The translations under genes and the position numbers were made by a program. Shown piece after piece: positions 9,335 through 22,899 of a DNA stretch of 24,000 bases. The notes under the pieces were generated by a model that saw only the letters and a list, made by a program, of their open reading frames with translations, made no database searches and had not been told where the DNA came from. Source of the stretch: Erysipelotrichia bacterium (GTDB lineage: Bacteria > Bacillota_I > Bacilli_A > Erysipelotrichales > Erysipelotrichaceae); NCBI GenBank assembly GCA_018333955.1, contig JAGXSD010000042.1, positions 10,629 through 34,628 of the forward strand, in the 5' to 3' direction. Position 1 is the first letter of the stretch. Each line of letters begins with the position of its first letter.

Positions 9335-9913
9335 ATGCCTTTCTTTTCATTTGAAATTCATAACATTCTTTTTTATATCATTACTATTTTGTGGAATCTA
9401 GAATTTCTAATCTTTAGATCAAAGTATAAAGGGAATAACTACTCAGATAAACAATCCTTCAAAACTATTTTAATCGTAATTGTTACCATTATTGCAGGAA
9501 CCATTGGTTATAATCTCTTAGGTCTATTCACTTTACCTGAATATACCTATGTGTATTTTAATTATGCAGGGATAACTTTATATACCATTGGCATTATTTT
9601 GAGATACAGTGCAAGTATCACTTTAGGACGATATTTCACTCGCAATGTGGAGGTGTCTTCTAATCAAGAACTCATTTCTCATGGTCCTTATAAACTTTTA
9701 GCTCATCCTCTTTATTTAGGGTTATTCCTACTAGTATTAGCCGTCCCAGTGTATTTTGGGCAGTTAGTGTGGATTTTTGGGGCAATATTCTTTTTTGGAC
9801 GTGTCATATTGAATAGAATGAATAGTGAAGAAAAAGCACTAGAAGCATCTTTAGGAGATACTTATGTTAAATGGCGTTCAAAGCGTTATCGTTTTATTCC
9901 TTGGATGTATTAA
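9335..9913 (+). CDS. Isoprenylcysteine carboxyl methyltransferase (ICMT/PEMT)-family membrane methyltransferase
   Basis: About 5 TM plus the C-terminal block ELISHGPYKLLAHPLYLGLFLLVLAVPVYFG, characteristic of the ICMT/phospholipid methyltransferase family. AAAGGAG RBS. crtP follows 9 nt downstream. Confidence 0.7.
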   Translation: MPFFSFEIHNILFYIITILWNLEFLIFRSKYKGNNYSDKQSFKTILIVIVTIIAGTIGYNLLGLFTLPEYTYVYFNYAGITLYTIGIILRYSASITLGRYFTRNVEVSSNQELISHGPYKLLAHPLYLGLFLLVLAVPVYFGQLVWIFGAIFFFGRVILNRMNSEEKALEASLGDTYVKWRSKRYRFIPWMY

Positions 9914-9922
9914 AGAGGTCAA

Positions 9923-11410
9923 ATGAAAAAGAAAGCGATTGTACTTGGAGCAGGTCTAGGTGGACTTAGTGCCGCAATCTCATTGGCACAACTTAATGAA
10001 TATGAAATTCATGTCTTAGAAAAAAATTCACATCGTGGTGGTAAACTTAATATCATTGAAAAAGATGGATTTAAGTTTGATTTGGGTCCTTCAATTGTCA
10101 CTATGCCTTATATCTTTGAGAAACTTTTTACCATGCACGGAAAGCGAATGGAAGATTATCTAATCTTTGAGCCTGTTTTTCCTCATTGGAGAAATTTCTT
10201 TGAAGATGGCACCATCTTAGATATCACTTCCACACTTGATGAGATGCTTAGTAATGTAACTTTAACATCTAAAGATTTAGAAGAACTTAAAGCTTTCTAT
10301 GATTACAGTGAAAAATTATACAAGTTTTCCAATGCGGTTCTCTTTGAAAATCAAAGTGAGCGAAAACTTGATACAATGAAACACTATCCACTCACACACA
10401 TCATTTCTGATTCAGACATGTTCCATACGATGGATGAAGGAGTAAGAACGTATATCTCTAATCCATATCTTATTGATATTCTTAATTATTTCATTAAATA
10501 TGTCGGTTCCTCTCCTTATGATGCCCCTGCAGTTTTAAATCTTCTTCCTTATATTCAATGGAAGTTTGGATTATGGTATGTGAAAGGTGGATTATTTGAA
10601 ATCTCGAATGCCTTGACAACCTTAGCCCATGAACTAAACATTACATTCCATCATAACGTTCAAATTGTGGATGCTAAGATGGATTCAAAAAAGATAGCAG
10701 CTCTAATTAGTCAAGATGGTACCCATTATGAAGCCGATTTATTCATCTCAAACATGGAAGTCATCCCATTCTATAAATTCATTACCAAAGAATCTTCATC
10801 ATTTCTTAAACCTTATGAAAAGAAATATGGTCCCGCATGTTCGGGTTTTGCACTTCACTTAGGCGTGAATAGAACATATCCTCAATTGGCTCATCATAAC
10901 TTCTTTTATTCTAAAAACTCAAAACAAAACTTTGATAATATCTTTCATCACAACATCCTGAATGAAGATCCTACGATTTACTTAGTTGCTCCTATGAAAT
11001 CTGATCCAGATTTAGGACCTCAAGGAAGTGAAATCATTAAGATTCTTCCTCATATTCCAGTAATCGATCCAAATCATCCATTCACAGATCAAGATTATGA
11101 AACCTTTAAACACCATGTCCTTGATAAACTAGAACGTATGGGACTGACTGATTTAAGGAAGCATATTGTGGTGGAAGAAACATGGACACCTCACACCATC
11201 TTAGAAGCTTATCAATCTAATCAAGGATCTATCTATGGGGTTGTCAGTGATAAAAATAAAAACATGGGATTTAAGACACCCAAGTTTAGTTCTAAATACA
11301 AGAACTTATTCTTTGTCGGGGGAAGTGTAAATCCTGGGGGTGGTATGCCTATGGTGATTCTTTCTGGTCAACAAGTTGTTGAGCAAATCAAAACCAAAAT
11401 AAAAGAGTGA
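9923..11410 (+). CDS. crtP: CrtP (CrtNb)-type 4,4'-diapocarotenoid oxygenase, FAD-dependent CrtI family
   Basis: GAGLGGLSAA dinucleotide-binding site. Long blocks match my recollection of S. aureus CrtP: DLGPSIVTMPYIFEKLF, ISNPYL..L.YFIKYVGSSPYDAPAVLN, ISNMEVIP, YPQLAHHNFF, DPTIYLV, LDKLERMGLTDLRKHI, FFVGGSVNPGGGMPMVILSGQQV. Confidence 0.8.
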   Translation: MKKKAIVLGAGLGGLSAAISLAQLNEYEIHVLEKNSHRGGKLNIIEKDGFKFDLGPSIVTMPYIFEKLFTMHGKRMEDYLIFEPVFPHWRNFFEDGTILDITSTLDEMLSNVTLTSKDLEELKAFYDYSEKLYKFSNAVLFENQSERKLDTMKHYPLTHIISDSDMFHTMDEGVRTYISNPYLIDILNYFIKYVGSSPYDAPAVLNLLPYIQWKFGLWYVKGGLFEISNALTTLAHELNITFHHNVQIVDAKMDSKKIAALISQDGTHYEADLFISNMEVIPFYKFITKESSSFLKPYEKKYGPACSGFALHLGVNRTYPQLAHHNFFYSKNSKQNFDNIFHHNILNEDPTIYLVAPMKSDPDLGPQGSEIIKILPHIPVIDPNHPFTDQDYETFKHHVLDKLERMGLTDLRKHIVVEETWTPHTILEAYQSNQGSIYGVVSDKNKNMGFKTPKFSSKYKNLFFVGGSVNPGGGMPMVILSGQQVVEQIKTKIKE

Positions 11411-11426
11411 GATATCACTCTTTTTT
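11401..11426. terminator. Bidirectional hairpin shared by the convergent crtP and 11415..11933 genes
   Basis: AAAAGAGTGA-GATA-TCACTCTTTT. The stems contain both stop codons (TGA 11408..11410 on plus, TGA 11417..11415 on minus). Confidence 0.55.
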
Positions 11427-11933
11427 AATCCAAGGACTGAAGTATATAGGACTATGTGAAGCTACTTTATAAAATAAAACAATGATAAGCGCAATAAAAT
11501 CCCAAGTCATTACATAGACAAACAAATCACTTTGATAAGCTTGTCGATACACACTCCAATCTCCAAAAATCAAGGCCCATAGCAACATTAGGGTTAGAAT
11601 GATATCGATTGATCCTAATAGAAAAAATGAATATTTTTTTAAAGGCTGAGGTTTACTTCTAAAAAGAAATTCTAAAGGAAATAATACAAATCCACCTAAT
11701 CCAAATCCTAATAAAGTAAGCATACTTTGCCACCATGGCTTCTTATCATTGATAGAAAGAATTAAAAAATACATTGGAATAAGTCCTAAAGCATTAAAGA
11801 CAAACCATAAGGAAGGATCAAGGTTTAAACTAAACACTTGATTTAAGAAATCACTTGATGCTCCATTGAGTGAAGCATTGATTGTAACCATCACTAGCAC
11901 AATCCAAATCAATAGTGGCACTCGTCGTTTCAT
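11415..11933 (-). CDS. Uncharacterised small membrane protein (172 aa, about 5 TM), last gene of the ABC1-kinase/CrtN-paralogue operon
   Basis: Its start overlaps the upstream stop (ATGA, 11933..11930). It is hydrophobic throughout. I recognise no family. Confidence 0.6.
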   Translation of the reverse strand: MKRRVPLLIWIVLVMVTINASLNGASSDFLNQVFSLNLDPSLWFVFNALGLIPMYFLILSINDKKPWWQSMLTLLGFGLGGFVLFPLEFLFRSKPQPLKKYSFFLLGSIDIILTLMLLWALIFGDWSVYRQAYQSDLFVYVMTWDFIALIIVLFYKVASHSPIYFSPWIKKE

Positions 11934-13417
11934 TTTAAGTCATCCTTCAAAAGTTGGGTACTGATGAGTGCTGATTGATAGATGGTGGGTAATCCACTTC
12001 CAGGATGAGTTCCTCCACCCACCAGATACAAATTAGGGATATCATTAAAGCGATTATGAGCTCTAAAATACAATAATTGATCAAATGAATGAGCCATATT
12101 AAACGTTGCTCCTAAATAAACCCCGAAATCATCACGCCAGTCAAATGGTGTAATGACTTTCATGGCTTGTATATGCTTTGTGATATCTTTACATCCAGCT
12201 CGCTCCTCTAAAAATTGAAGTACACGTTGAGTATAGTCTTCTTTAAGAACGTTCCAATCAATATCAGCGAGTGTATTAGGAACAGGAACTAAGACATAGA
12301 GTGCGCTATGCCCAACAGGTGCTATTGAAGGGTCAAGCTTCACAGGATTATGAACATAGAAACTTGCATCTGGGGTTAATACTAATCGCTCAGTCATATC
12401 GAGTACATTACTGCGATAATCTTCGGAGAAGATTAGATTATGATGATGAAGATGCTCATATTGAGTATCAAGACCTAGATAAAGCATAAAAGTTGAACAC
12501 GAATAATTCTTTTTACTAAGCTTTTTATTGTTCCATGAAGGACGATGTTTTTCATCGACTAATTCTTGAATACTAGTTGCAAAATCTCCATTAAGAATCG
12601 CTCCATCCACATCAATCTTCTGCTCATTAACAATTATTGAAGTCACTCTTTGATTCTCAATTTCAAGTTGATTGACACGCGCATTAAAGTGAAAGGTTGC
12701 CCCAAACGATTCGGCTTCTTCCTTCATGGCTTGGGCTAATGCATTTAATCCTCCCTTCACATGAAATAAGCCATAGGCATGTTCCATGTAGGAAAGAATT
12801 GAGAATGCACTAGGGCACTGCCATGGTGACATACCTAAGTATTTTGCTTGAAAAGCCATTGCATATATAAGTTCTTCGTCCTTAAAGAAACGTTGTAATC
12901 TTTGGTATAAAGATCTGAATGGATCTAGGTATGGAAGTCCTGTCACAACATCAGGATGTAAATAATCACTAATCTTAGTGAATGGCAGTTTCAAAACCTT
13001 TGAAATCGCACTAAATCGTTTGCCTTCTTCTTTCAGATATTGATCATATCCTCGCTCATTTCCTGGGAAAACACGAGATATTTCTTCTCGCATTACACTT
13101 GGATTGCTACTAGGATAGATTTTCTTATGCTTAAAAATCAGTTGATATAAAGGATCTAGTGGGATAAGGGTGACTTTATCGTCAAGTTTTCGATTCACCT
13201 TTGCAAAGACTTCATCCAGTAAAGGTTTATATAAAAAGAATGTTGGTCCAATATCAAAATGGTAGACATCCTCCAATGTTAAGCGAGCGTTGCGACCTCC
13301 TACGTGAGGTTTTGCTTCATACACATGGACATCGTATCCATCATGGGCTAATAACATCGCCGCTGCAAGTCCACCTGGACCAGCTCCAATAATCGCAATC
13401 TTTTTCTTACTTTCCAT
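11930..13417 (-). CDS. Third phytoene-desaturase-family FAD oxidoreductase (CrtN/CrtI paralogue, possibly CrtNc-like), 495 aa
   Basis: IAIIGAGPGGLAAAMLLA...VGGR Rossmann motif, FDIGPTFF, KGGLNALAQAM, and C-terminal LYLVGGGTHPGSGLPT. The likely start MESKKK at 13417 is preceded by AAGGAG 7 nt upstream and overlaps the kinase gene by 11 nt. Confidence 0.75.
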   Translation of the reverse strand: MESKKKIAIIGAGPGGLAAAMLLAHDGYDVHVYEAKPHVGGRNARLTLEDVYHFDIGPTFFLYKPLLDEVFAKVNRKLDDKVTLIPLDPLYQLIFKHKKIYPSSNPSVMREEISRVFPGNERGYDQYLKEEGKRFSAISKVLKLPFTKISDYLHPDVVTGLPYLDPFRSLYQRLQRFFKDEELIYAMAFQAKYLGMSPWQCPSAFSILSYMEHAYGLFHVKGGLNALAQAMKEEAESFGATFHFNARVNQLEIENQRVTSIIVNEQKIDVDGAILNGDFATSIQELVDEKHRPSWNNKKLSKKNYSCSTFMLYLGLDTQYEHLHHHNLIFSEDYRSNVLDMTERLVLTPDASFYVHNPVKLDPSIAPVGHSALYVLVPVPNTLADIDWNVLKEDYTQRVLQFLEERAGCKDITKHIQAMKVITPFDWRDDFGVYLGATFNMAHSFDQLLYFRAHNRFNDIPNLYLVGGGTHPGSGLPTIYQSALISTQLLKDDLK

Positions 13418-14621
13418 ACACCATCTCCTTAAACTCCTCAATAAATTGACCCACTTCTTTCATAAGCACAGAATCAGGATTTCCTTTAAGTACAATACCA
13501 TCCATATACATATGAGACTTAATAATCGCAAACATGCCTTTCTCAAATTCCATGCCTGATTCAACCCCTAATTTAATCGTCTGCATCATCTTTTTAGTTA
13601 ATGATTCCTCAGACACACTTTTCCCTTCAAAATCTTTGTATAGTTCTTTTAAACCTTCAATATAGCGATCAAGTTTCTTGCCTTCAATGCCTTTAAACGC
13701 CATTTCATTGAGTGAGCGCGCACATCCTTCATAGTTAGCATTGGATAAATTTGCCATAAAATTGAATAAACCAAATCTAATTTTGTCATCCACATGGGCA
13801 ATCGCGCCGGTATCAATAAAGTAAAATCGGGAATCCTTGTATATCATATTTCCTGGATGTAGATCCCCATGAAATGTCCCACTATGATACATATAAAAAC
13901 CATGAAGGCGGAATATTTCAAGTAAATCATCATTGCTTAGCACCTTTAATGGAAGAATCGCATCCACGGTTGGACCATCTAAAAACTCAGAGACAAGGAT
14001 TTTTTCACTGGATAGAGATTCATAGATTTTTGGAAATCCTAGTCGAGATAAATCAAATTTGTCTTTGTTTTGATAATATATTTCCCTAAGAATTTTGCCA
14101 TGAGCAATCTCATTGCGTAAATCAAGTTCGGCTAAAGTATACTCTTTAATATATTCAATGATTCCAATTGGATCTGCCACTTTAGCTAGCTTAGGATAAA
14201 AGAAGATTGCAATCCTCATTAAACGATCAAGTTTACGAACATCTTTTTCAAAATCTTTGGTGAAATCTTGTTTAATGATTTTTATAACAACCTCATCTTT
14301 GTTTTTAAGCCGTGCGCGATGAACTTGCCCTACCGAAGCACTGCCGATAGGATTTGGATCTATCCATTCAAATTGCTCTTGCCAAGACGCATCTGTAAAA
14401 TCATGAATAAGTTTAAAAACATCTTCTGAAGGAAGAGGTAGCGTTGAACTATATAACTGGGCTAAATGAGTGCATTGTTCATGGCTCAAGAAATCAACTC
14501 GAAGAGCGAAGGTTTGAGCTATTTTGACAGCTAAAAGACCTTTGCGCTGTATCGCTTCAAGGTCTGCTTTCTTCTTTGAAAAAATCATGCTCATAAGATG
14601 AATAAAACTAATTGCATTCAT
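13407..14621 (-). CDS. ABC1/UbiB/AarF-family atypical protein kinase, soluble (404 aa)
   Basis: VKIAQTFALRVDFL (KxGQ-like), IGSASVGQVHRARL, VVIKIIKQ (catalytic Lys), ELDLRNEIAHG, ILVSEFLDG, FHGDLHPGNMIY and YFIDTGA. The start is ATG 14621, with AAAGGAG 7 nt upstream; the track's TTG at 14645 is less likely. Confidence 0.8.
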   Translation of the reverse strand: MNAISFIHLMSMIFSKKKADLEAIQRKGLLAVKIAQTFALRVDFLSHEQCTHLAQLYSSTLPLPSEDVFKLIHDFTDASWQEQFEWIDPNPIGSASVGQVHRARLKNKDEVVIKIIKQDFTKDFEKDVRKLDRLMRIAIFFYPKLAKVADPIGIIEYIKEYTLAELDLRNEIAHGKILREIYYQNKDKFDLSRLGFPKIYESLSSEKILVSEFLDGPTVDAILPLKVLSNDDLLEIFRLHGFYMYHSGTFHGDLHPGNMIYKDSRFYFIDTGAIAHVDDKIRFGLFNFMANLSNANYEGCARSLNEMAFKGIEGKKLDRYIEGLKELYKDFEGKSVSEESLTKKMMQTIKLGVESGMEFEKGMFAIIKSHMYMDGIVLKGNPDSVLMKEVGQFIEEFKEMVYGK

Positions 14622-14680
14622 GCCTAGACTCCTTTTAAAAATCAACTAAATCAAGTGTATCATATTCATTGAGCCCAATT

Positions 14681-14713
14681 AAACAAAACACCTGTCGAAC
14701 TATTCGACAGGTG
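14681..14713 (-). terminator. Strong rho-independent terminator after the heliorhodopsin gene
   Basis: Minus strand reads CACCTGTCGAA-TAG-TTCGACAGGTG (14713..14689), an 11-bp perfect stem, followed by TTTTGTTT. Confidence 0.8.
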
Positions 14714-14719
14714 AATGAA

Positions 14720-15505
14720 TTATGGTTGCATGGCCCCAAAGAGGACTAACCAAGCTAGGACTGATTTTGCGGCTAAAGAAAGCACAATGTAGGTTCTTTC
14801 CCCATACAAATAATCTTTCCATTTTCCAACACCTAAATATTGAAGAATCATGTTAATTGGGAATGTATTAAATGCTACAAAGTAAGTTCCAACAATCGCC
14901 CAAACAAACCAAGGAATTTGATCCAGTGTTGCACTTGATCCACTCATGTACATAATAATAGCAATCCATGGTGCTAATCCCGCAACACTACCCCAAATAA
15001 ATGGTCCCCAGTTGACATTCTTTTTATCGACTCCTGCATTCAGTAATTCCATATCTAATCCGAATAAGTTCATGGATGCATTGATTAGGAAGATTAAGAT
15101 GAGGGTCACCACATCATAAATACCAAATAATGTTGCGATTAATACAATCATAATGGATGATGATAATGCATATTCAAACCATCTGAATTGGTTTACACCA
15201 CGCTTTAAATCATTGGTATAACGATCTTTTGATAATACAATGAGAAAGTGAGCAAAAGCAGAAATCAGTAAGAATGATGAGACGAGGACTGCGAACGGTA
15301 AATCAAATAAATCTTTAGTGGCCACTGCTAGACTCATGGTGGTGACGTCAAAGAATTGATAGGTTTGTGTGATGGTTGGTGTAAAGCGTGCTAAACGTTC
15401 AAATCCAATCGTCGCTAGAAATAACATCCCTAATCCTTGAACTAAATGGAAGAAACCCATAATTAAATTAAATCGTCTTAGTTTGAAAAAATTGTCTTGA
15501 GTCAT
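14720..15505 (-). CDS. Heliorhodopsin (7-TM retinal-binding photoreceptor with inverted topology), 261 aa
   Basis: Blocks match the heliorhodopsin family as I recall HeR 48C12: GFFHLVQ, AFAHFLIV, FRWFEYALSSSIMIVLIA (counterion Glu), INASMNLFG, and GERTYIVLSLAAKSVLAW (Schiff-base Lys, codon 14767..14765). A KLRRF basic cluster precedes TM1. The start is ATG 15505, with AAGGAGAAGG 5 nt upstream. Confidence 0.9.
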   Translation of the reverse strand: MTQDNFFKLRRFNLIMGFFHLVQGLGMLFLATIGFERLARFTPTITQTYQFFDVTTMSLAVATKDLFDLPFAVLVSSFLLISAFAHFLIVLSKDRYTNDLKRGVNQFRWFEYALSSSIMIVLIATLFGIYDVVTLILIFLINASMNLFGLDMELLNAGVDKKNVNWGPFIWGSVAGLAPWIAIIMYMSGSSATLDQIPWFVWAIVGTYFVAFNTFPINMILQYLGVGKWKDYLYGERTYIVLSLAAKSVLAWLVLFGAMQP

Positions 15506-15569: not shown

Positions 15570-16253
15570 TTAACTATTAAAAATCATTATTTTCATATCA
15601 AGTCCTTGTCTATTTTGATAAAAATCTTTCGGAATGTATGTCGCACCTTGATGATGAATAAGAAAAGCAGCACATGCCAATGACGTCGCATCAATGATAT
15701 CGAGATGGTAATACTGAGGAAAGGAATTTAGAGCATGTTCTAAATCTTCTTTCAACCAAGTAAAGTGATGAACTAAACAATCGATTCTTTCTTGTTTACC
15801 TAATGGATTATGTTTTGAGTATGTGCAAGGTTTCCCTTGTAGTCTTTCAAAGATGAGTTCTGGAAAGGATTCATGAATATTTAAGTGAGGATGTTTTAGT
15901 ACAAAATCATTCACTTCTCTAATAATAGGAATGATATGAAAAGATTGCTTGCTTAAGCCTTTTTTAAGAATATCTCTATTGATATGGTTTGCTTCCTCAT
16001 AACTTTGAGCATTTAAGGTTTGTAATGCGGGAACATTAAATACACTGGAGGCTCTTCCCTGAACCAGTTTTCTAATCAAAGGTTCAGGTCTTTGTTCGTT
16101 AGTTGAACTTGGACATCCAATCGGAACATCAATCAGAATTAGATCATTGTAATCATGAATGCTTTCTAATGACTTTTCTACTTTGATGATTAATCTTTGA
16201 TTTTGAATGATAGCAAGCATATATCCTTGTTTACATCCATCTATACCCATCAT
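15570..16253 (-). CDS. DUF429-family protein (predicted RNase-H-like fold), 227 aa
   Basis: MMGIDGCKQGY...LIDVPIG...RASSVFNVPA...SFHIIPIIREV...ESFPELIF fits the DUF429 pattern (GIDG.., D.PIG, SSVF..P, E.HPE..F). AGAGGTG lies 7 nt before ATG 16253; the track start at 16286 is less likely. Confidence 0.6.
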   Translation of the reverse strand: MMGIDGCKQGYMLAIIQNQRLIIKVEKSLESIHDYNDLILIDVPIGCPSSTNEQRPEPLIRKLVQGRASSVFNVPALQTLNAQSYEEANHINRDILKKGLSKQSFHIIPIIREVNDFVLKHPHLNIHESFPELIFERLQGKPCTYSKHNPLGKQERIDCLVHHFTWLKEDLEHALNSFPQYYHLDIIDATSLACAAFLIHHQGATYIPKDFYQNRQGLDMKIMIFNS

Positions 16254-16325
16254 AAGGGACACCTCTTGACTTGTGTAATTGTTCATGATTTAATAACCAC
16301 AGTATACTAGAAAAAGAGGTTGAAG

Positions 16326-16799
16326 ATGAATCAAATACTATATGGTGTAACTTTCACTTTATTAGGAATTTCTGCACTCAAAGATCTTAAAAAGACAAAA
16401 CAAGCCTTAATGAAAGCTTGGAAAGGATTTGAAGGAATGCTTCCTCAGATTCTTACGATTATCCTAGTTATTGGAATTATCATTGCGGTGTTATCTCCTG
16501 AACAGATTGCTTCAATTATGGGGGAACAATCAGGTTGGTGGGGAATTATGTTAGCTTCACTCATTGGAGCAATCACTTTAATGCCAGGATTCGTAGCCTT
16601 TCCACTTGCAGCTACATTACTTAATAACGGAGCAGGACTATCGCAAATCGCAGCTTTTATCTCTTCACTTATGATGGTTGGTTTTATTACCCTTCCACTT
16701 GAAATTCAACACTTTGGAAAGAAAGCTGCATTACTTCGCAATGGATTAGCATTCCTATTCTCATTTGTCGTTGCGATTTTGATTGGAGTTATACTATGA
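16326..16799 (+). CDS. Predicted permease, first subunit of a two-gene split permease (UPF0718/ArsP-like type)
   Basis: Hydrophobic 157 aa (LIGAITLMPGFVAFPLAATLLNNGAGLSQIAAFISS). Its stop overlaps the next start (ATGA at 16796). It resembles the two-component membrane permease pairs annotated in streptococci. Confidence 0.5.
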   Translation: MNQILYGVTFTLLGISALKDLKKTKQALMKAWKGFEGMLPQILTIILVIGIIIAVLSPEQIASIMGEQSGWWGIMLASLIGAITLMPGFVAFPLAATLLNNGAGLSQIAAFISSLMMVGFITLPLEIQHFGKKAALLRNGLAFLFSFVVAILIGVIL

Positions 16800-17335
16800 A
16801 GAAACAACCATTCATTAAACGATATCAATCTGTCATCATTATGATTGGAGTTTATACTATCCTTTATTTCATGTCAGCATCCATCTTTTCTACTGCCCTT
16901 AGTGGTTCAAGACAATCGCTTATTGAGTTATTAATTGTGGTGCCACCCATCTTTATTTTGATTGGACTACTTGATGTTTGGGTTGAAAAAGAGAAAATGA
17001 TGAAACTCATGGGTCCTGAGTCAAAAGGAACTGGCATCCTCATTGCCTTTTTACTCGGCTCACTTGCAGCTGGTCCACTGTATGCAGCATTTCCAGTGGC
17101 CATCACGCTTCTTAAGAAAGGATCTTCATTTAGAAACATTCTTGTGCTATTAGGAGCCTGGTCCACAACCAAGATTCCGATGTTGATGTTTGAATCTGCT
17201 TCAATGGGGTTAAACTTTACAATCACTCGCTTTATCATTAACTTGTTTGGGATTATGGCCATTGCATTAATCTCTGAAAAAGTGCTAAGTGAAAAAACAA
17301 TGATAAGTATTGGTGAGCGCTATAGTGAATCATAA
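16796..17335 (+). CDS. Predicted permease, second subunit of the split permease pair
   Basis: Hydrophobic 179 aa (LLGSLAAGPLYAAFPVAITLLKKGSSFRNILVLLGAWSTTKIPMLMFE), translationally coupled to the previous gene. Confidence 0.5.
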   Translation: MKKQPFIKRYQSVIIMIGVYTILYFMSASIFSTALSGSRQSLIELLIVVPPIFILIGLLDVWVEKEKMMKLMGPESKGTGILIAFLLGSLAAGPLYAAFPVAITLLKKGSSFRNILVLLGAWSTTKIPMLMFESASMGLNFTITRFIINLFGIMAIALISEKVLSEKTMISIGERYSES

Positions 17336-18962: not shown

Positions 18963-18990
18963 CAAAATAAAAACCTCAAAATTGAGGTTA
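18963..18990 (-). terminator. Rho-independent terminator of the crtM operon
   Basis: Minus strand reads AACCTCAA-TT-TTGAGGTT followed by TTTATTTTG. The stop codon 18990..18988 lies in the stem. Confidence 0.6.
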
Positions 18991-19785
18991 GCGAACAAAG
19001 GTATGAATAAGTGGAGTAAATATGGAAATGGTAATCATATTTGATAGAAAATTGACCATATGATTATCCATCCAAACGACACCCGAAACAAGTATATCAT
19101 TGGAATGTTGCATCATCTCAACAAGTTCATGACTGGCGGTTTTAAACTTAGCTTGGAATAATTCTCCTAGAATTGAATCCATAATTGATCCACCAAATCC
19201 AGCAAGTGTGGTTAATGAAAACAATGTTAAAGTGAGAAATGTCCATCCCGAGTAAGAAACTAAGACAGGGAGTGCTATGAGTGTAATAAAGAGTGATCCA
19301 AACCAAGAAGCAATAAGCCCTAACCAAGTCACTCCACCAGATAAACCTGATTGAATATGATTGCGTTTGATAAGCGTCCAAGGGGTCTCATAGGATAATG
19401 AACCTATCTCTGATGCCCATGTGTCCGACGTTGCGGCAGCCATGGATATGATACCAAAACATAAAATCCAAATCGAAGGACTTAAGTAATACCAGACACT
19501 TGCAACCCCTAGCATACTTCCATTCGCCACAACATTCACCCAAGATCGTGGCTCATGATCTTTAACATAGGGTTTAATATTGGGTATAAATTGAACAAGC
19601 ACTTTGCTGATGAGTAATGATGAAAACAAGAATGACATCATCAAAATATAAAAGATTGGATGTCCAAATCCTAAGACAGTAAAACCAAGCACAAAAGAAG
19701 CAATCGCGCCTGAAAGAGTTAATTTATTCTTTATGAATAATCCCCAACTGATGAGAAGATTAAAAATCAATGAAAACAGAAGCAT
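18988..19785 (-). CDS. DUF92/TMEM19-family membrane protein (family of the plant VTE6 phytyl-phosphate kinase)
   Basis: VVANGS, SDTWASEIG, SGLSGGVTWLG and GFGGSIMDSILGELFQ match the DUF92 conserved blocks. Its start lies 1 nt after the upstream stop. Confidence 0.75.
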   Translation of the reverse strand: MLLFSLIFNLLISWGLFIKNKLTLSGAIASFVLGFTVLGFGHPIFYILMMSFLFSSLLISKVLVQFIPNIKPYVKDHEPRSWVNVVANGSMLGVASVWYYLSPSIWILCFGIISMAAATSDTWASEIGSLSYETPWTLIKRNHIQSGLSGGVTWLGLIASWFGSLFITLIALPVLVSYSGWTFLTLTLFSLTTLAGFGGSIMDSILGELFQAKFKTASHELVEMMQHSNDILVSGVVWMDNHMVNFLSNMITISIFTPLIHTFVR

Positions 19786-19786
19786 A

Positions 19787-20446
19787 TTACACCAACATCA
19801 ATAGATAGCTTAATAGTGAAGCACCTAAAGGTAAAGTAATATTATCAAACCCATCTTTAGTGTAAAGTTCAAGTGCTGCACTTACAACACCAACACAAAG
19901 TGCTTTGACACCCCACCATGCATCACCCATAGAAGCGAACACAAATCCTGAAATCGCGAAACCAAAGAAAAATACCATCAGAGATCCTTCAATGGATTTA
20001 AAACCAGATCCAATCTTAATCTTTGTATTTCCAAACTTCTCTCCCACAACCGCTGCAAAGCCATCACCATACCCCATGGTGAGTATTCCAATCGCTCCAA
20101 TGGCTTCTAATCCACGTGTGAAGGTCACAAGCGTTAAGATAAGCAAGGATATGACATAATACACCGTGCCTAAGTCTTTCTTTGAACCATCACGCTCCAT
20201 AGCTTTAAAGGTTTGATTTTTATATGAATACGTATTGATGATCACAAAAGCAGCTGGAGTAATGGCTGCCATCCAAACATTATCAAAAAAGAACATCGCA
20301 ATAAACCACCAATTCGACACCATAATATGAATAAACTTTCGTGAAGATTCTCCGTTGAAGATTTTCTTCGCAGAAAGTACAGTACTAATCCCAATAATCA
20401 CAAAGATATACGCAAATGAGACGATAAGACCATAAACATTATTCAT
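19787..20446 (-). CDS. CTP-dependent polyprenol kinase family protein (VTE5 phytol kinase / dolichol kinase / farnesol kinase family)
   Basis: SRKFIHI, GYGDGFAAVVGEKFGNTKI....FKSIEGSLMVFF and DNITLPLG are the family signature blocks. Its start overlaps the crtM stop (ATGA 20446..20443). Confidence 0.75.
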   Translation of the reverse strand: MNNVYGLIVSFAYIFVIIGISTVLSAKKIFNGESSRKFIHIMVSNWWFIAMFFFDNVWMAAITPAAFVIINTYSYKNQTFKAMERDGSKKDLGTVYYVISLLILTLVTFTRGLEAIGAIGILTMGYGDGFAAVVGEKFGNTKIKIGSGFKSIEGSLMVFFFGFAISGFVFASMGDAWWGVKALCVGVVSAALELYTKDGFDNITLPLGASLLSYLLMLV

Positions 20447-21303
20447 AAACTGAGTTGTGTCCTTTCTAAGGTTGCTTTTTTAATCAACTGATGAACTTGA
20501 TTTTGTAATGCAATGAAATCCTTAACTTTACAGCGCGTACTTAAACAATCATAGTGATTTTCTCTTACTGCATTAAGGATACCTCGATAGTATACAATAG
20601 CTTGCGTAATCGCAACAAGAGCATCTTGATCATAGTATTTCAAATCTTCAATCGCATGATCATAAAACTTAAGGGCTAAACTCGCAAGATGTTCCCACAC
20701 CTTTATGAATGAATCATTCACTTTCTTGTCTTGAATGGCATGAATAATCTCATCATTGAGGAGCGATTGCGGTAGATAAATTCTGTTTTTTTGATGATAA
20801 TCCTCACCAACATCACGTAGTATGTTCGTAATCTGCATAGCATATCCTAATTCAATGGCACTTTGTTCGATACGTTGATGATGTTGGGTTGCTAGTATTG
20901 GTAATAACATAAGTCCTACACTACTCGCCACATGATAACTATACTTTAATAATGCTTCTTCATCCTTGATGCCTTGAAAGTGGTTGTCCATTTCTTGACC
21001 AATAATCATATCTTTAAATGGTGTTAATGGAATATTAAAGCGTTGTATGGTATCTGACAAAGCCCATAATATCGGATGATTGTCATTCATGGATTCTAAG
21101 TGATCGAGTGCCGAAGCAAATTCATGAAGTTTGTCTATATCTTGAAGTTCATCTATTGCATCATCCACTTCACGACAAAAACCATACACTGCGAATACTC
21201 CTTGACGTTTATGAAGGGGTAGATCTTTAAACGCCATATAGAAGGATTTAGAGTGTTTTTGAATAATCTTTTCACATCGGTGATAGGCTTGACTCAATTT
21301 CAT
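20443..21303 (-). CDS. crtM: 4,4'-diapophytoene (dehydrosqualene) synthase, squalene/phytoene synthase family
   Basis: KHSKSFYMAF, VYGFCREVDDAID (first Asp-rich motif), and NILRDVGEDY (second). The size and blocks match S. aureus CrtM as I recall it. The C30 versus C40 assignment rests on the co-occurring CrtN/CrtP. Confidence 0.8.
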   Translation of the reverse strand: MKLSQAYHRCEKIIQKHSKSFYMAFKDLPLHKRQGVFAVYGFCREVDDAIDELQDIDKLHEFASALDHLESMNDNHPILWALSDTIQRFNIPLTPFKDMIIGQEMDNHFQGIKDEEALLKYSYHVASSVGLMLLPILATQHHQRIEQSAIELGYAMQITNILRDVGEDYHQKNRIYLPQSLLNDEIIHAIQDKKVNDSFIKVWEHLASLALKFYDHAIEDLKYYDQDALVAITQAIVYYRGILNAVRENHYDCLSTRCKVKDFIALQNQVHQLIKKATLERTQLSL

Positions 21304-21309
21304 ATCAAA

Positions 21310-21318
21310 AGTATAGCA
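21310..21318 (-). promoter_or_regulatory. Extended -10 TGcTATACT 6 nt upstream of the crtM ATG, a leaderless candidate
   Basis: Minus strand reads TGCTATACT-tttgat-ATG. No SD lies within 20 nt. Confidence 0.4.
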
Positions 21319-21323
21319 TAGCC

Positions 21324-21343
21324 CTTGTCTCTTGTCTTACAAT
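21324..21343 (+). promoter_or_regulatory. Tandem CTTGTCT-CTTGTCT repeat abutting -10-like TACAAT of crtN
   Basis: cCTTGTCTCTTGTCTTACAATagactcaGGAGAaatgtATG. The repeat occupies the spacer of crtN and the -35 area of crtM. Confidence 0.35.
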
Positions 21344-21360
21344 AGACTCAGGAGAAATGT

Positions 21361-22899
21361 ATGAAAAAAGTGATTATTGTTGGGGCTGGAATTGGTGGCC
21401 TTGTAAGTGCTATAAAACTGAAACATCATGGATATGATGTCACGATTATTGAGAAGAATGAGCGAATCGGTGGAAAGATCAATCAAATAAAAAAAGATGG
21501 ATTTACCTTTGATATGGGTCCTACGATTGTGATGATGCCTCAACTTTATGATGAGGTTTTTAAATATGTCTTTCGAAATCCTGAAGACTACTATACAAAA
21601 ACTCAACTCAATCCAATTTATAATGTCTATTTTTCTAAAGAAGACAAAGTTGAGGTGAATACAGATTTAGTGCATCTTACCAAATTTCTTGAAGGCATGA
21701 GTGAACAAGAAGCATCTGGATATTTTAACTATCTTAATGATATTTATCGCCGATACATAATTGCGAAAGAACATTTCTTAGAAAAAACATTTAATAAGGC
21801 GAGTGATGTTTTAAACTTTAAAACCCTTCTTAATGGATTTAAGTTAAAAACCTTTGATACTGCATATCATTCAGTATCTAAGTTTGTGAAGAATGAAAAA
21901 CTAAGAAAACTACTCAGTTTTCAAACGTTATATATTGGAATCTCACCTTATGTAGGACCTTCGATTTACTCCATTATTCCTATGGTTGAAACTTTATATG
22001 GTATATGGTTTTTTAAAGGTGGAATGTATGGCTACATTCAAGGACTTGAAAAACTCATTCAAGAAATGGGTATAAAAGTCATCTTAAATACAACGGTCGA
22101 TGAAATCTTTATTAGTAATTTGAAAGCTAAAGGGGTGGTCATTGGTGAAGAGATCTTATGTGCTGATATCGTGATTAATAACACGGATTTCCCTTATGCA
22201 ATGAGAGAACTGATTAAGAACGAAAAGCATCGCCCTAAATACACCAACAAAAAACTTTCAAACATGGATTACTCATCCTCTGCGTTTATGATGTATTTGG
22301 GTCTAAACAAGAAACTAGATCATCTCAATGTTCATAATTTATACTTGTCCCCAGATTTTGAAGGAAACATCAAAGATATCTTTAGTGCTAAACTACCCCC
22401 TACGCCATCCATGTATTTCTATGTTCCTTCTAAACTTGATGAAAGTCTTGCCCCAGAAGGACATGAAGCGCTATACATTCTTGTCCCTGTTCCTAATCTA
22501 AAAGGATTTCCACACACTTGGGATGACAAACTCATTGCATCCTATCGCAAAGAAATCTTTGATCGCATTGCGAGTGAAAACATTATTGAAAATTTAAGTG
22601 ATCATATCGTCAGTGAAACCATCCTTACACCTCTAGATTGGCAAAAACAAGTTCATGCCCACTATGGAGCAACCTTCGGTCTTGCGCCAACATTAAGACA
22701 AAGTAATAACTTCAGACCTCAACCTATGTTTAAAGGAATCAAACATTTCTATCATACAGGCTCATCAATCCATCCTGGAGCTGGAATTCCAATTGTCATG
22801 ATGAGCGCTCAGTTATGCGTCAATGAAGTTTTAAAATATGATCCTAATGGAGGGTCTTTTGCATGCAAAGTTTATGCACAAGAATATGAAAACGCTTAA
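21361..22899 (+). CDS. crtN: 4,4'-diapophytoene desaturase
   Basis: Blocks match S. aureus CrtN as I recall it: VIIVGAGIGGL, KKDGFTFDMGPTIVMMP, KLLSFQTLYIGISP..GPSIYSIIPM.E, FKGGMYG, YSSSAFMMYLG, LAPEG, IVSETILTP.DW, and HPGAGIPIV. Confidence 0.85.
   Translation: MKKVIIVGAGIGGLVSAIKLKHHGYDVTIIEKNERIGGKINQIKKDGFTFDMGPTIVMMPQLYDEVFKYVFRNPEDYYTKTQLNPIYNVYFSKEDKVEVNTDLVHLTKFLEGMSEQEASGYFNYLNDIYRRYIIAKEHFLEKTFNKASDVLNFKTLLNGFKLKTFDTAYHSVSKFVKNEKLRKLLSFQTLYIGISPYVGPSIYSIIPMVETLYGIWFFKGGMYGYIQGLEKLIQEMGIKVILNTTVDEIFISNLKAKGVVIGEEILCADIVINNTDFPYAMRELIKNEKHRPKYTNKKLSNMDYSSSAFMMYLGLNKKLDHLNVHNLYLSPDFEGNIKDIFSAKLPPTPSMYFYVPSKLDESLAPEGHEALYILVPVPNLKGFPHTWDDKLIASYRKEIFDRIASENIIENLSDHIVSETILTPLDWQKQVHAHYGATFGLAPTLRQSNNFRPQPMFKGIKHFYHTGSSIHPGAGIPIVMMSAQLCVNEVLKYDPNGGSFACKVYAQEYENA

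Follow-up and report, generated by a model that had tools for sequence, protein, structure and literature searches.

The 24,000-nucleotide stretch analysed here (the window; contig JAGXSD010000042.1 of the Erysipelotrichia bacterium assembly GCA_018333955.1) carries on its minus strand three genes that are best read as one operon, with a candidate promoter and a terminator of its own. The first gene encodes a protein of the UbiB/ABC1 family (hereafter ABC1), the second a carotenoid desaturase (CrtI_B) and the third a small membrane protein, mem172 (Table 1). The pairing of ABC1 with CrtI is a conserved module that is widespread across bacterial and archaeal phyla, and in this window it lies in an island of carotenoid genes. 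On balance, we think, the UbiB-family ATPase would give CrtI_B access to a membrane-buried substrate or electron acceptor, with mem172 as an accessory.

Structure of the operon and its products

The open reading frame (ORF) of ABC1 was listed as 13407-14645, and its true start is the ATG at 14621, which has a GGAG 7 nt upstream. The ATG of CrtI_B at 13417 precedes the TAA stop codon of ABC1 (13409-13407), giving an overlap of 11 nt (ATGGAAAGTAA), and the ribosome-binding site (RBS) of CrtI_B, AAGGAG at 13430-13425, is located 7 nt 5' of its start, within the ABC1 coding sequence. The start of mem172 at 11933 in turn overlaps the desaturase stop codon as ATGA. An earlier note on this DNA had described both overlaps and the internal RBS, and all three are present; its reading of the three genes as an operon also holds, with terminators on both sides and an arrangement that recurs in relatives whose ABC1 is 76-89% identical.

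Table 1. Positions of the operon, its signals and the neighbouring pigment genes in the window
Feature	Position	Strand	Description
ABC1 gene	13407..14621	-	predicted soluble atypical kinase-like ATPase of the UbiB/ABC1 family, 404 aa
CrtI_B gene	11930..13417	-	predicted (diapo)phytoene desaturase of CrtI/CrtN type, FAD-dependent; 495 aa, with translational coupling to ABC1
mem172	11415..11933	-	172-aa membrane protein with five helices, unclassified family; ATGA-coupled to the desaturase
Upstream intrinsic terminator	14689..14713	-	follows the heliorhodopsin gene and bounds the operon on its upstream side
Candidate -10 region TATGATACACT	~14660..14672 (approximate)	-	putative own promoter of the operon
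Downstream terminator	11401..11424	-	bounds the operon on its downstream side; also serves CrtI_A, which converges on it
Heliorhodopsin	14720..15505	-	PF18761 (E=3.5e-91), NF038020 (286 bits); ATG 15505 after a GGAG RBS
Convergent operon	9335..11410	+	ICMT-like methyltransferase (PF04140, PF04191) and CrtD/CrtP-like CrtI_A (TIGR02734)
Rest of the carotenoid island	18988..22899	both	DUF92, 219-aa membrane protein and SQS_PSY (-); divergent CrtI_C (+)

Both terminators are hairpins that lead into a T-run: the upstream one has a GC-rich stem of 11 bp and folds at -16.9 kcal/mol (z = -6.6 relative to shuffled sequences), the downstream one has a stem of 10 bp and folds at -11.5 kcal/mol (z = -3.6). 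The spacer between heliorhodopsin and ABC1 was compared in three related loci (cited here by our locus numbers: L001, L004 and L176), and in each of them a hairpin with a T-run occupies the same position with a different stem sequence. The TATGATACACT box sits after the hairpin in all three spacers, and the string TATGATACACTT between terminator and ABC1 start is shared by the window with L001 and L004, and in part with L176. The box was missed by a promoter consensus scan because a good -35 is absent. With a terminator and a conserved -10-like box between heliorhodopsin and ABC1, the operon is best read as separate from the heliorhodopsin unit, and these elements argue for heliorhodopsin being a distinct transcription unit. 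The earlier note had placed the operon immediately downstream of a heliorhodopsin gene. This is correct as to position, but the linkage is confined to close relatives, and the terminator lies between the two.

The ABC1 product matched PF03109 over profile positions 3-242 of 244 (E=2.2e-43; 148.6 bits, cut-off 22.9), and no transmembrane segment was predicted by a hydrophobic-segment scan (maximum KD19 value 1.33). Its translation carries KIAQ, GSASVGQVHRA, VVIKIIK, FHGDLHPGN and IDTGA, so that the soluble 404-aa ABC1 protein with five family motifs of the earlier note was borne out. In the alignment, AVKIAQ faces ALKLGQ of COQ8A (the KxGQ element; Lys and Gln kept, Gly replaced by Ala) and GSASVGQVH faces the Ala-rich loop AAASIGQVH, while VVIKI, HGDLHPGN and IDTGA align with their COQ8A and Rv3197 equivalents and are invariant across 15 homologues. 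The AlphaFold2 (AF2) model, with a predicted local distance difference test score (pLDDT) of 86.6, matched COQ8A structures 7udq, 5i35 and 4ped in Foldseek at E of ~1e-14 over ~400 columns (template modelling (TM) score 0.64-0.71). By sequence, the closest solved structures were Rv3197 and MSMEG_1954 (74.5 and 70.7 bits). The protein fell far short of the equivalog cut-offs for UbiB (171.6 bits where TIGR01982 requires 487.55, and 110.2 where NF003404 requires 667) and scored 85.5 bits against NF050082, whose cut-off is 800. Moreover, its neighbours in the window are carotenoid genes, not ubi genes, and it has no hydrophobic segment that would correspond to the C-terminal membrane anchor of E. 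coli UbiB. Its sequence thus identifies it as a member of the UbiB family that is not UbiB itself.

The intact catalytic motifs (Lys, HGDLHPGN, IDTGA) and weak Pfam matches to Pkinase and RIO would also suit a genuine protein kinase with a regulatory role, whose target would be the desaturase or some other enzyme of the pathway. Such phosphorylation is reported for ABC1K1/K3 of plant plastoglobules, and plant ABC1Ks influence prenyl-lipid and carotenoid metabolism. We regard such a function as very unlikely for the ABC1 protein, since it has an N-terminal KxGQ-type element and an Ala-rich loop, and its model can be overlaid on COQ8A at full length. In COQ8A, these two elements block the access of protein substrates and favour ATPase activity. 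Nor is a regulatory kinase usually coupled so tightly, one to one, with its target in an operon. Judging by its COQ8A-like fold and motifs, together with published work on COQ8 and UbiB, the ABC1 protein would rather be a soluble lipid-responsive ATPase.

The nearest named relatives of ABC1 are from metagenome-assembled genomes (MAGs) of Acholeplasmataceae and Tenericutes (~64% identity). The 120 best ABC1 homologues included no ABC1-CrtI fusion protein, and two long ORFs at loci of high GC content were dismissed as ORF-calling artefacts. Plasmid-borne copies were not found at E of 1e-30 or better.

CrtI_B matched TIGR02734 (crtI_fam) over profile positions 2-492 of 504 with 451.6 bits (cut-off 238.1) and NAD_binding_8 at 2.3e-12. 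Its N-terminal GxGxxG Rossmann motif for binding of flavin adenine dinucleotide (FAD) is IIGAGPGGLAAA, which is invariant in alignment A4. None of the NCBIfam equivalog cut-offs was reached (CrtID, 307 against 640 bits). Among PDB entries its best match was Pantoea CrtI (4dgk, 252 bits, against 198 bits for CrtD, 4rep). The corresponding scores for CrtI and CrtD are 247 and 253 bits for CrtI_C, and 181 and 263 bits for CrtI_A, which matched TIGR02734 at 328.8 bits. In a crude neighbour-joining tree, CrtI_B and other ABC1-linked enzymes are interleaved with CrtI/CrtN of classic clusters, namely CrtI of flavobacterial crtZ/crtY clusters and CrtN of CrtN-AldH-CrtNb clusters. CrtI_B falls within a Mollicutes/Bacillota clade whose members are all ABC1-linked, CrtI_C lies with the second desaturase of crtM clusters from Bacillota, and CrtI_A with the second (CrtNb/CrtP-like) gene of CrtN-AldH-CrtNb clusters. 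The family assignment made earlier was therefore correct, but the label "paralogue" proved misleading: judged by structure-match scores and tree position, CrtI_B is the most CrtI-like of the window's three enzymes and is predicted to be the canonical CrtI/CrtN-type desaturase of the pathway. A sequence signature for ABC1-linked CrtIs was considered and rejected, as the best alignment-column difference was 0.38 and no exclusive clade was seen in the tree.

The third product, mem172, has five hydrophobic segments and an all-helical AF2 model (pLDDT 78). In agreement with the earlier note, which had found no known family for it, no Pfam or NCBIfam match was obtained even at E up to 10, and the model had no fold match in the PDB with E below 2 (Foldseek). 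A profile search of 1.84 billion representatives returned 89 relatives of 160-230 aa, which belong to no Pfam family and share the motifs DP..VFN.LG..P, LGF.LGAF and D.FVHIMT.DF. The gene is found 3' of the ABC1-CrtI pair in the window and L176, and divergent from it in two Bacillota MAGs (L062 and L067); in L095 it overlaps a CrtI_B-like gene at a locus from which ABC1 is absent. From its sequence and gene context, mem172 is probably a lineage-restricted accessory of the desaturase and possibly serves as a docking or substrate site in the membrane. As an ABA4-like gene follows CrtI in archaea of marine group II (MGII), mem172 was also compared with ABA4-like (DUF4281) proteins, and this candidate was rejected (hhalign probability 0.2%). 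Weak DUF2834 matches appeared in the flank survey and among mem172 relatives; when 10 small flanking proteins were scanned, DUF2834 was detected in none of the 10.

Conservation of the ABC1-CrtI pair

To survey the pair, one genome per species was scanned with an ABC1 alignment and the 80 closest loci were kept. A CrtI gene was located at most 1.5 kb from ABC1 in 69 of the 80 species genomes, and six of the 11 other loci are cut by a contig end beside ABC1. In 68 of the 69 loci the best match of the neighbouring CrtI was CrtI_B (39-47% identity). The pairing is consequently not the unusual arrangement that the earlier note had supposed, and the linkage in relatives on which that note had made its reading depend is conserved. 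The order and orientation of the pair vary (CrtI before ABC1 in 33 loci, ABC1 before CrtI in 28, divergent in five and convergent in three), and its flanking genes are otherwise almost wholly different between loci. The overlapping reading frames are retained in close relatives. Pairwise ABC1 and CrtI distances correlate (r=0.59, Mantel p=0.001), a value to which shared organismal history contributes. Apart from the general possibility, nothing favours a chance or hitch-hiking neighbourhood; it is effectively refuted by 69 of 80 independent species genomes that keep the pair through changes of order, orientation and flanks, and by the overlapping frames of the close relatives, and its probability is negligible.

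According to the MAG taxonomy as deposited, the bacterial hosts of the pair include Acholeplasmataceae, Izemoplasmataceae, Bacillota, Clostridia, Veillonellaceae, Fusobacteriaceae, Thermodesulfobacteriota, Deltaproteobacteria, Gammaproteobacteria and Acidobacteriota. They also include members of the Fibrobacteres-Chlorobi-Bacteroidetes (FCB) group (Ignavibacteria, Bacteroidota, Delongbacteria, Fibrobacterota), of the Planctomycetes-Verrucomicrobia-Chlamydiae (PVC) group (Verrucomicrobiota, Kiritimatiellia, Lentisphaerae) and of four groups of the candidate phyla radiation (CPR). Among archaea, the pair was found in Woesearchaeota (DPANN) and in Poseidoniaceae of MGII. No description of an ABC1/UbiB-CrtI pair was found in open-access papers and bioRxiv, and the heliorhodopsin papers among them are silent on it. 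UbiB-family proteins and CrtI enzymes are each well known; a prokaryote-wide operonic UbiB-like/CrtI module is, as far as we found, new.

In the reciprocal survey, metagenome contigs were scanned with a CrtI_B-type alignment, and 80 loci (41-52% identity) were kept. An adjacent ABC1 was present at 16 of them, a CrtN-AldH-CrtNb-type cluster at another 16, a neighbouring SQS_PSY gene at four and a flavobacterial crtZ/crtY-type cluster at four, while 18 loci were cut by a contig end and 22 had no recognised neighbour. Taken together, 69 of 80 in one direction and 16 of 80 in the other indicate that this ABC1 subfamily is essentially always accompanied by CrtI, and that CrtI does not depend on ABC1.

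Six MGII loci (L080-L085) place the pair among carotenoid genes, in the order TrmB-like, DUF1295, ABC1, CrtI, Trx/AhpC-like, ABA4-like (DUF4281), SQS_PSY and GT2, with photolyase and SRPBCC/epimerase genes alongside. In a profile search of six-frame ORFs, SQS_PSY was found within 10 kb of the pair at MGII loci and at one Paceibacterota locus only.

Several points weigh against the reading that ABC1 assists a carotenoid desaturase. At about 62 of the 69 ABC1-CrtI loci no phytoene/squalene synthase was seen within 10 kb. Several hosts are labelled as lineages not known for carotenoids (Saccharibacteria, Parcubacteria, Woesearchaeota, Fusobacteriaceae, Izemoplasmataceae), in which the substrate may not be a carotenoid precursor, and the deposited host names themselves are possibly wrong. 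Many bona fide CrtI/CrtN loci have no adjacent ABC1, so the ATPase is not generally required. The internal branches of the neighbour-joining tree are very short and weakly resolved, and all functional statements made here are drawn from sequence and context.

Side observations on the flanks concern two kinds of genes. In 10-11 loci, mostly of the FCB group, a gene for a secreted DUF2141 protein (~145 aa) either separates CrtI from ABC1 or adjoins them; it is inserted between the two in L019, L022, L026, L035, L037, L039 and L079 (Ignavibacteria, Bacteroidota, Delongbacteria). Peroxide-stress genes adjoin the pair or distant mem172 relatives at L008, L009, L012 and L051, at L023, L029 and L043, at L080-L085, and at L088, L091 and L093.

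Some of these flanking genes bear on what the pair acts upon. GPx and MarR genes follow it in four loci labelled Acholeplasmataceae, Mariniplasma and Bacillota (L008, L009, L012, L051), a YtfJ/AhpC-TSA-like gene lies between its members in Thermodesulfobacteriota, and among 119 flanking genes surveyed there were six AhpC-TSA and four GSHPx matches. Distant mem172 relatives adjoin GPx-MarR, overlap an SDR gene with MsrAB and YaaA nearby, or lie near OsmC. Such recurrent neighbours of thiol-peroxidase fold (GPx with MarR, YtfJ/AhpC-TSA-like, Trx-like) and of mem172 relatives would fit a self-contained module that in most lineages has a lipid other than a carotenoid as its substrate (for example a polyprenol, squalene, a quinone side chain or a lipid scavenged from the host) and serves membrane or oxidative-stress homeostasis, the carotenoid setting of the window being a secondary recruitment. 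The isolated position of the pair among variable flanks, the rarity of a synthase within 10 kb and the presence of the pair in CPR, DPANN and strictly anaerobic lineages point the same way. We nevertheless consider this rather unlikely. ABC1-linked CrtIs are not separable, by residue or by clade, from CrtI/CrtN of proven context; the pair stands amid carotenoid genes in the window, L175, L176 and MGII; carotenoid genes are often dispersed, which makes the absence of a synthase within 10 kb weak evidence; and peroxidase neighbours would also suit antioxidant carotenoids or H2O2 produced by an O2-reoxidised flavoenzyme.

A broader form of this idea, which we hold to be unlikely, is that the pair is an ancient, horizontally mobile and self-sufficient two-gene lipid-modifying module in hosts unable to make carotenoid precursors, with the UbiB-like ATPase as lipid extractor. 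Such hosts (CPR, DPANN, Izemoplasma-like Mollicutes and other anaerobes) could desaturate a different or scavenged polyprenyl lipid. If so, the module would be a previously unrecognised system of membrane-lipid remodelling or antioxidant defence, and the carotenoid operon of the window would be one specialisation of it.

The pigment island of the window and its relatives

A SQS_PSY gene and two further CrtI paralogues are located within 9 kb of the pair in the window. The distance from SQS_PSY to CrtI_B is 7 kb, and in L175 and L176 SQS_PSY is part of the cluster that contains the pair. The gene order heliorhodopsin-ABC1-CrtI_B-mem172 is kept where ABC1 is 76-89% identical (L001, L004, L176). 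At L175, where identity is 68%, heliorhodopsin and mem172 are both absent and the adjacency is lost; the overlap of ABC1 and CrtI_B there is 8 nt. The order of L175 is SQS, 219-aa homologue, DUF92 and AldH, then CrtI_A and ICMT, then ABC1, CrtI_B and a hexapeptide acyltransferase, after which mevalonate genes follow. This gene set is the one to be expected of the firmicute C30 carotenoid-acid pathway (CrtM/CrtN/CrtP/AldH). The earlier note had suggested a regulatory or lipid-handling module for the pigment pathway; an accessory role in lipid handling is the best reading, one that the complete carotenoid and mevalonate cluster of L175 fits.

These features suggest that the island probably consists of carotenoid genes of a CrtM-based C30 pathway, the C30 assignment being plausible and indirectly supported. 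Its host is of Acholeplasma/Erysipelotrichia-grade Bacillota. The nearest named relatives of SQS_PSY are from Erysipelotrichaceae and Erysipelothrix MAGs (74-76% identity), followed by CrtM-like proteins of Bacillales and Carnobacteriaceae (43-47%). The taxonomic signal is mixed, with ABC1 nearest to Acholeplasmataceae/Tenericutes and the synthase nearest to Erysipelotrichaceae; GC content is ~33-39%.

In the remainder of the island, the CrtM-like SQS_PSY, the 219-aa protein and DUF92/TIGR00297 form an overlapping operon (18988-21303, minus strand) that is conserved in L001, L004 and L175. DUF92 is the family of plant VTE6 (phytyl-phosphate kinase), and the motif GYGDGFAAVVGEKFG of the 219-aa protein is reminiscent of VTE5 and dolichol-kinase-type prenol kinases. 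The identification of the 219-aa protein as a VTE5-like prenol kinase was not retained, since no profile supported it. From their sequences, DUF92 and the 219-aa protein may be a prenol salvage pair that supplies the carotenoid synthase. The ICMT/PEMT-like methyltransferase remains paired with CrtI_A in L001, L004 and L175, in the last of which an aldehyde dehydrogenase gene is also near. The ICMT-like gene is a candidate for methyl esterification of a carotenoid acid.

No retinal-forming enzyme of the Blh/Brp type was recognised among the proteins of the window. Should the pigments of the island be acyclic C30 carotenoids, the heliorhodopsin would lack an evident supply of retinal. It was proposed in a 2025 preprint that heliorhodopsins bind exogenous carotenoid antennae. 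Just upstream of heliorhodopsin, 10 nt from its longest ORF, lies a DUF429 gene (15570-16286, minus strand) that is found in the window, L001 and L004 and is absent in L176. Two transporters of the window are split into overlapping ORFs: FeoB on the minus strand (G-domain 2171-2752, Gate/FeoB_C 759-2201) and an ArsP_1-type permease on the plus strand (16320-16799 and 16796-17335), the latter split being kept in L001 and L004. The mevalonate genes of L175 (10782-14668), which come directly after its carotenoid cluster, encode two GHMP kinases, a diphosphomevalonate decarboxylase and an IDI-like protein of the FMN-dependent type.

Proposed role of ABC1 and comparison with known systems

In the mechanism that we favour, the ABC1 protein would spend ATP to make extremely hydrophobic, bilayer-buried diapophytoene or phytoene (C30/C40) accessible to the peripheral flavoenzyme CrtI, and in some Bacillota and Mollicutes mem172 may offer a membrane site for substrate access. 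Extraction or presentation of the lipid is the role that we infer as most likely for ABC1, by analogy with the function proposed for UbiB/COQ8 in quinone synthesis, and the proteins may be in physical contact. As an alternative within the same role, ABC1 might render a lipid electron acceptor accessible to CrtI.

In its stricter form this alternative holds that ABC1 handles the acceptor and not the substrate, delivering or extracting the lipid oxidant, a quinone or some other, by which the FAD of CrtI is reoxidised, a function that would matter most at low oxygen. UbiB-family proteins are tied to quinone handling in the UbiB/COQ8/Cqd literature, and in Pantoea CrtI biochemistry the enzyme needs O2 or quinones as acceptor. 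Carriers of the pair also appear enriched in anaerobe-labelled lineages, whereas unlinked CrtI/CrtN loci include the aerobe-typical flavobacterial and CrtN-AldH-CrtNb clusters; but this pattern is an impression from MAG labels. Neither the MGII archaea nor the light-exposed organism of the window are anaerobes, and CPR and many Mollicutes are not known to have quinones. We therefore think it quite unlikely that the acceptor is what ABC1 handles.

What UbiB/ABC1/ADCK proteins do biochemically is still a matter of debate, with kinase, ATPase and lipid extractor as the proposals. The family includes the human disease genes COQ8A/B and the plant plastoglobule ABC1Ks. The subfamily described here is soluble and occurs in many prokaryotic phyla, and the one genetic partner conserved with it is CrtI. 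This membrane-peripheral flavoenzyme is well studied; its activity can be read from colour in E. coli, and a liposome assay has been established for it. Its read-outs and the pairing thus provide a direct and simple test bed for the lipid-presentation hypothesis. The survey also indicates that an accessory factor has gone unrecognised for many CrtI-type desaturases of uncultured and anaerobic lineages, which is relevant to pathway reconstruction and carotenoid engineering. With mem172, the parts list gains a family of membrane proteins that is unclassified.

Compared with UbiB and COQ8 (ADCK3), the ABC1 protein shares PF03109, a KxGQ-type element, the Ala-rich loop, the catalytic motifs and the fold, and like them it would assist flavin-dependent enzymes whose substrates are polyprenyl lipids. 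It differs from UbiB in scoring far below the equivalog cut-offs and in lacking a transmembrane helix, from COQ8 in the alanine that replaces the KxGQ glycine (KIAQ), and from both in that its conserved partner is a CrtI-type desaturase instead of a Ubi or Coq enzyme. The mycobacterial proteins Rv3197 (MABP-1) and MSMEG_1954 are likewise soluble bacterial members of the UbiB family (~400-450 aa), and structures of their ADP and AMPPNP complexes are available; unlike ABC1, they are described as macrolide-binding ATPases, and they are not known to have a CrtI partner. The plastoglobule ABC1Ks of plants and cyanobacteria are also ABC1-domain proteins connected with carotenoid and prenyl-lipid metabolism. 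Unlike ABC1, they are eukaryotic, multi-paralogue regulators that are reported to phosphorylate their targets, and they have no one-to-one operonic pairing with a desaturase.

CrtI_B, for its part, resembles CrtI of Pantoea and CrtN of Staphylococcus and Methylomonas in its TIGR02734 match, its 4dgk score, its clustering and the synthase and tailoring genes nearby. It differs from them in being translationally coupled to two partners that the known systems do not need, a gene of the UbiB family and a new membrane protein. The island as a whole is similar to the Firmicute C30 carotenoid-acid pathway (CrtM with CrtNa/Nb/Nc or CrtN/CrtP/AldH), with three CrtI paralogues and a CrtM-like synthase, and with AldH and an acyltransferase in L175. 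The carboxyl-methyltransferase-like gene would fit the methyl-ester end products known from Planococcus and Halobacillus. Unlike that pathway, the island has its genes spread over three or four transcription units, contains ABC1, mem172, the DUF92 protein and the 219-aa membrane protein in addition, and has a heliorhodopsin gene embedded in it.

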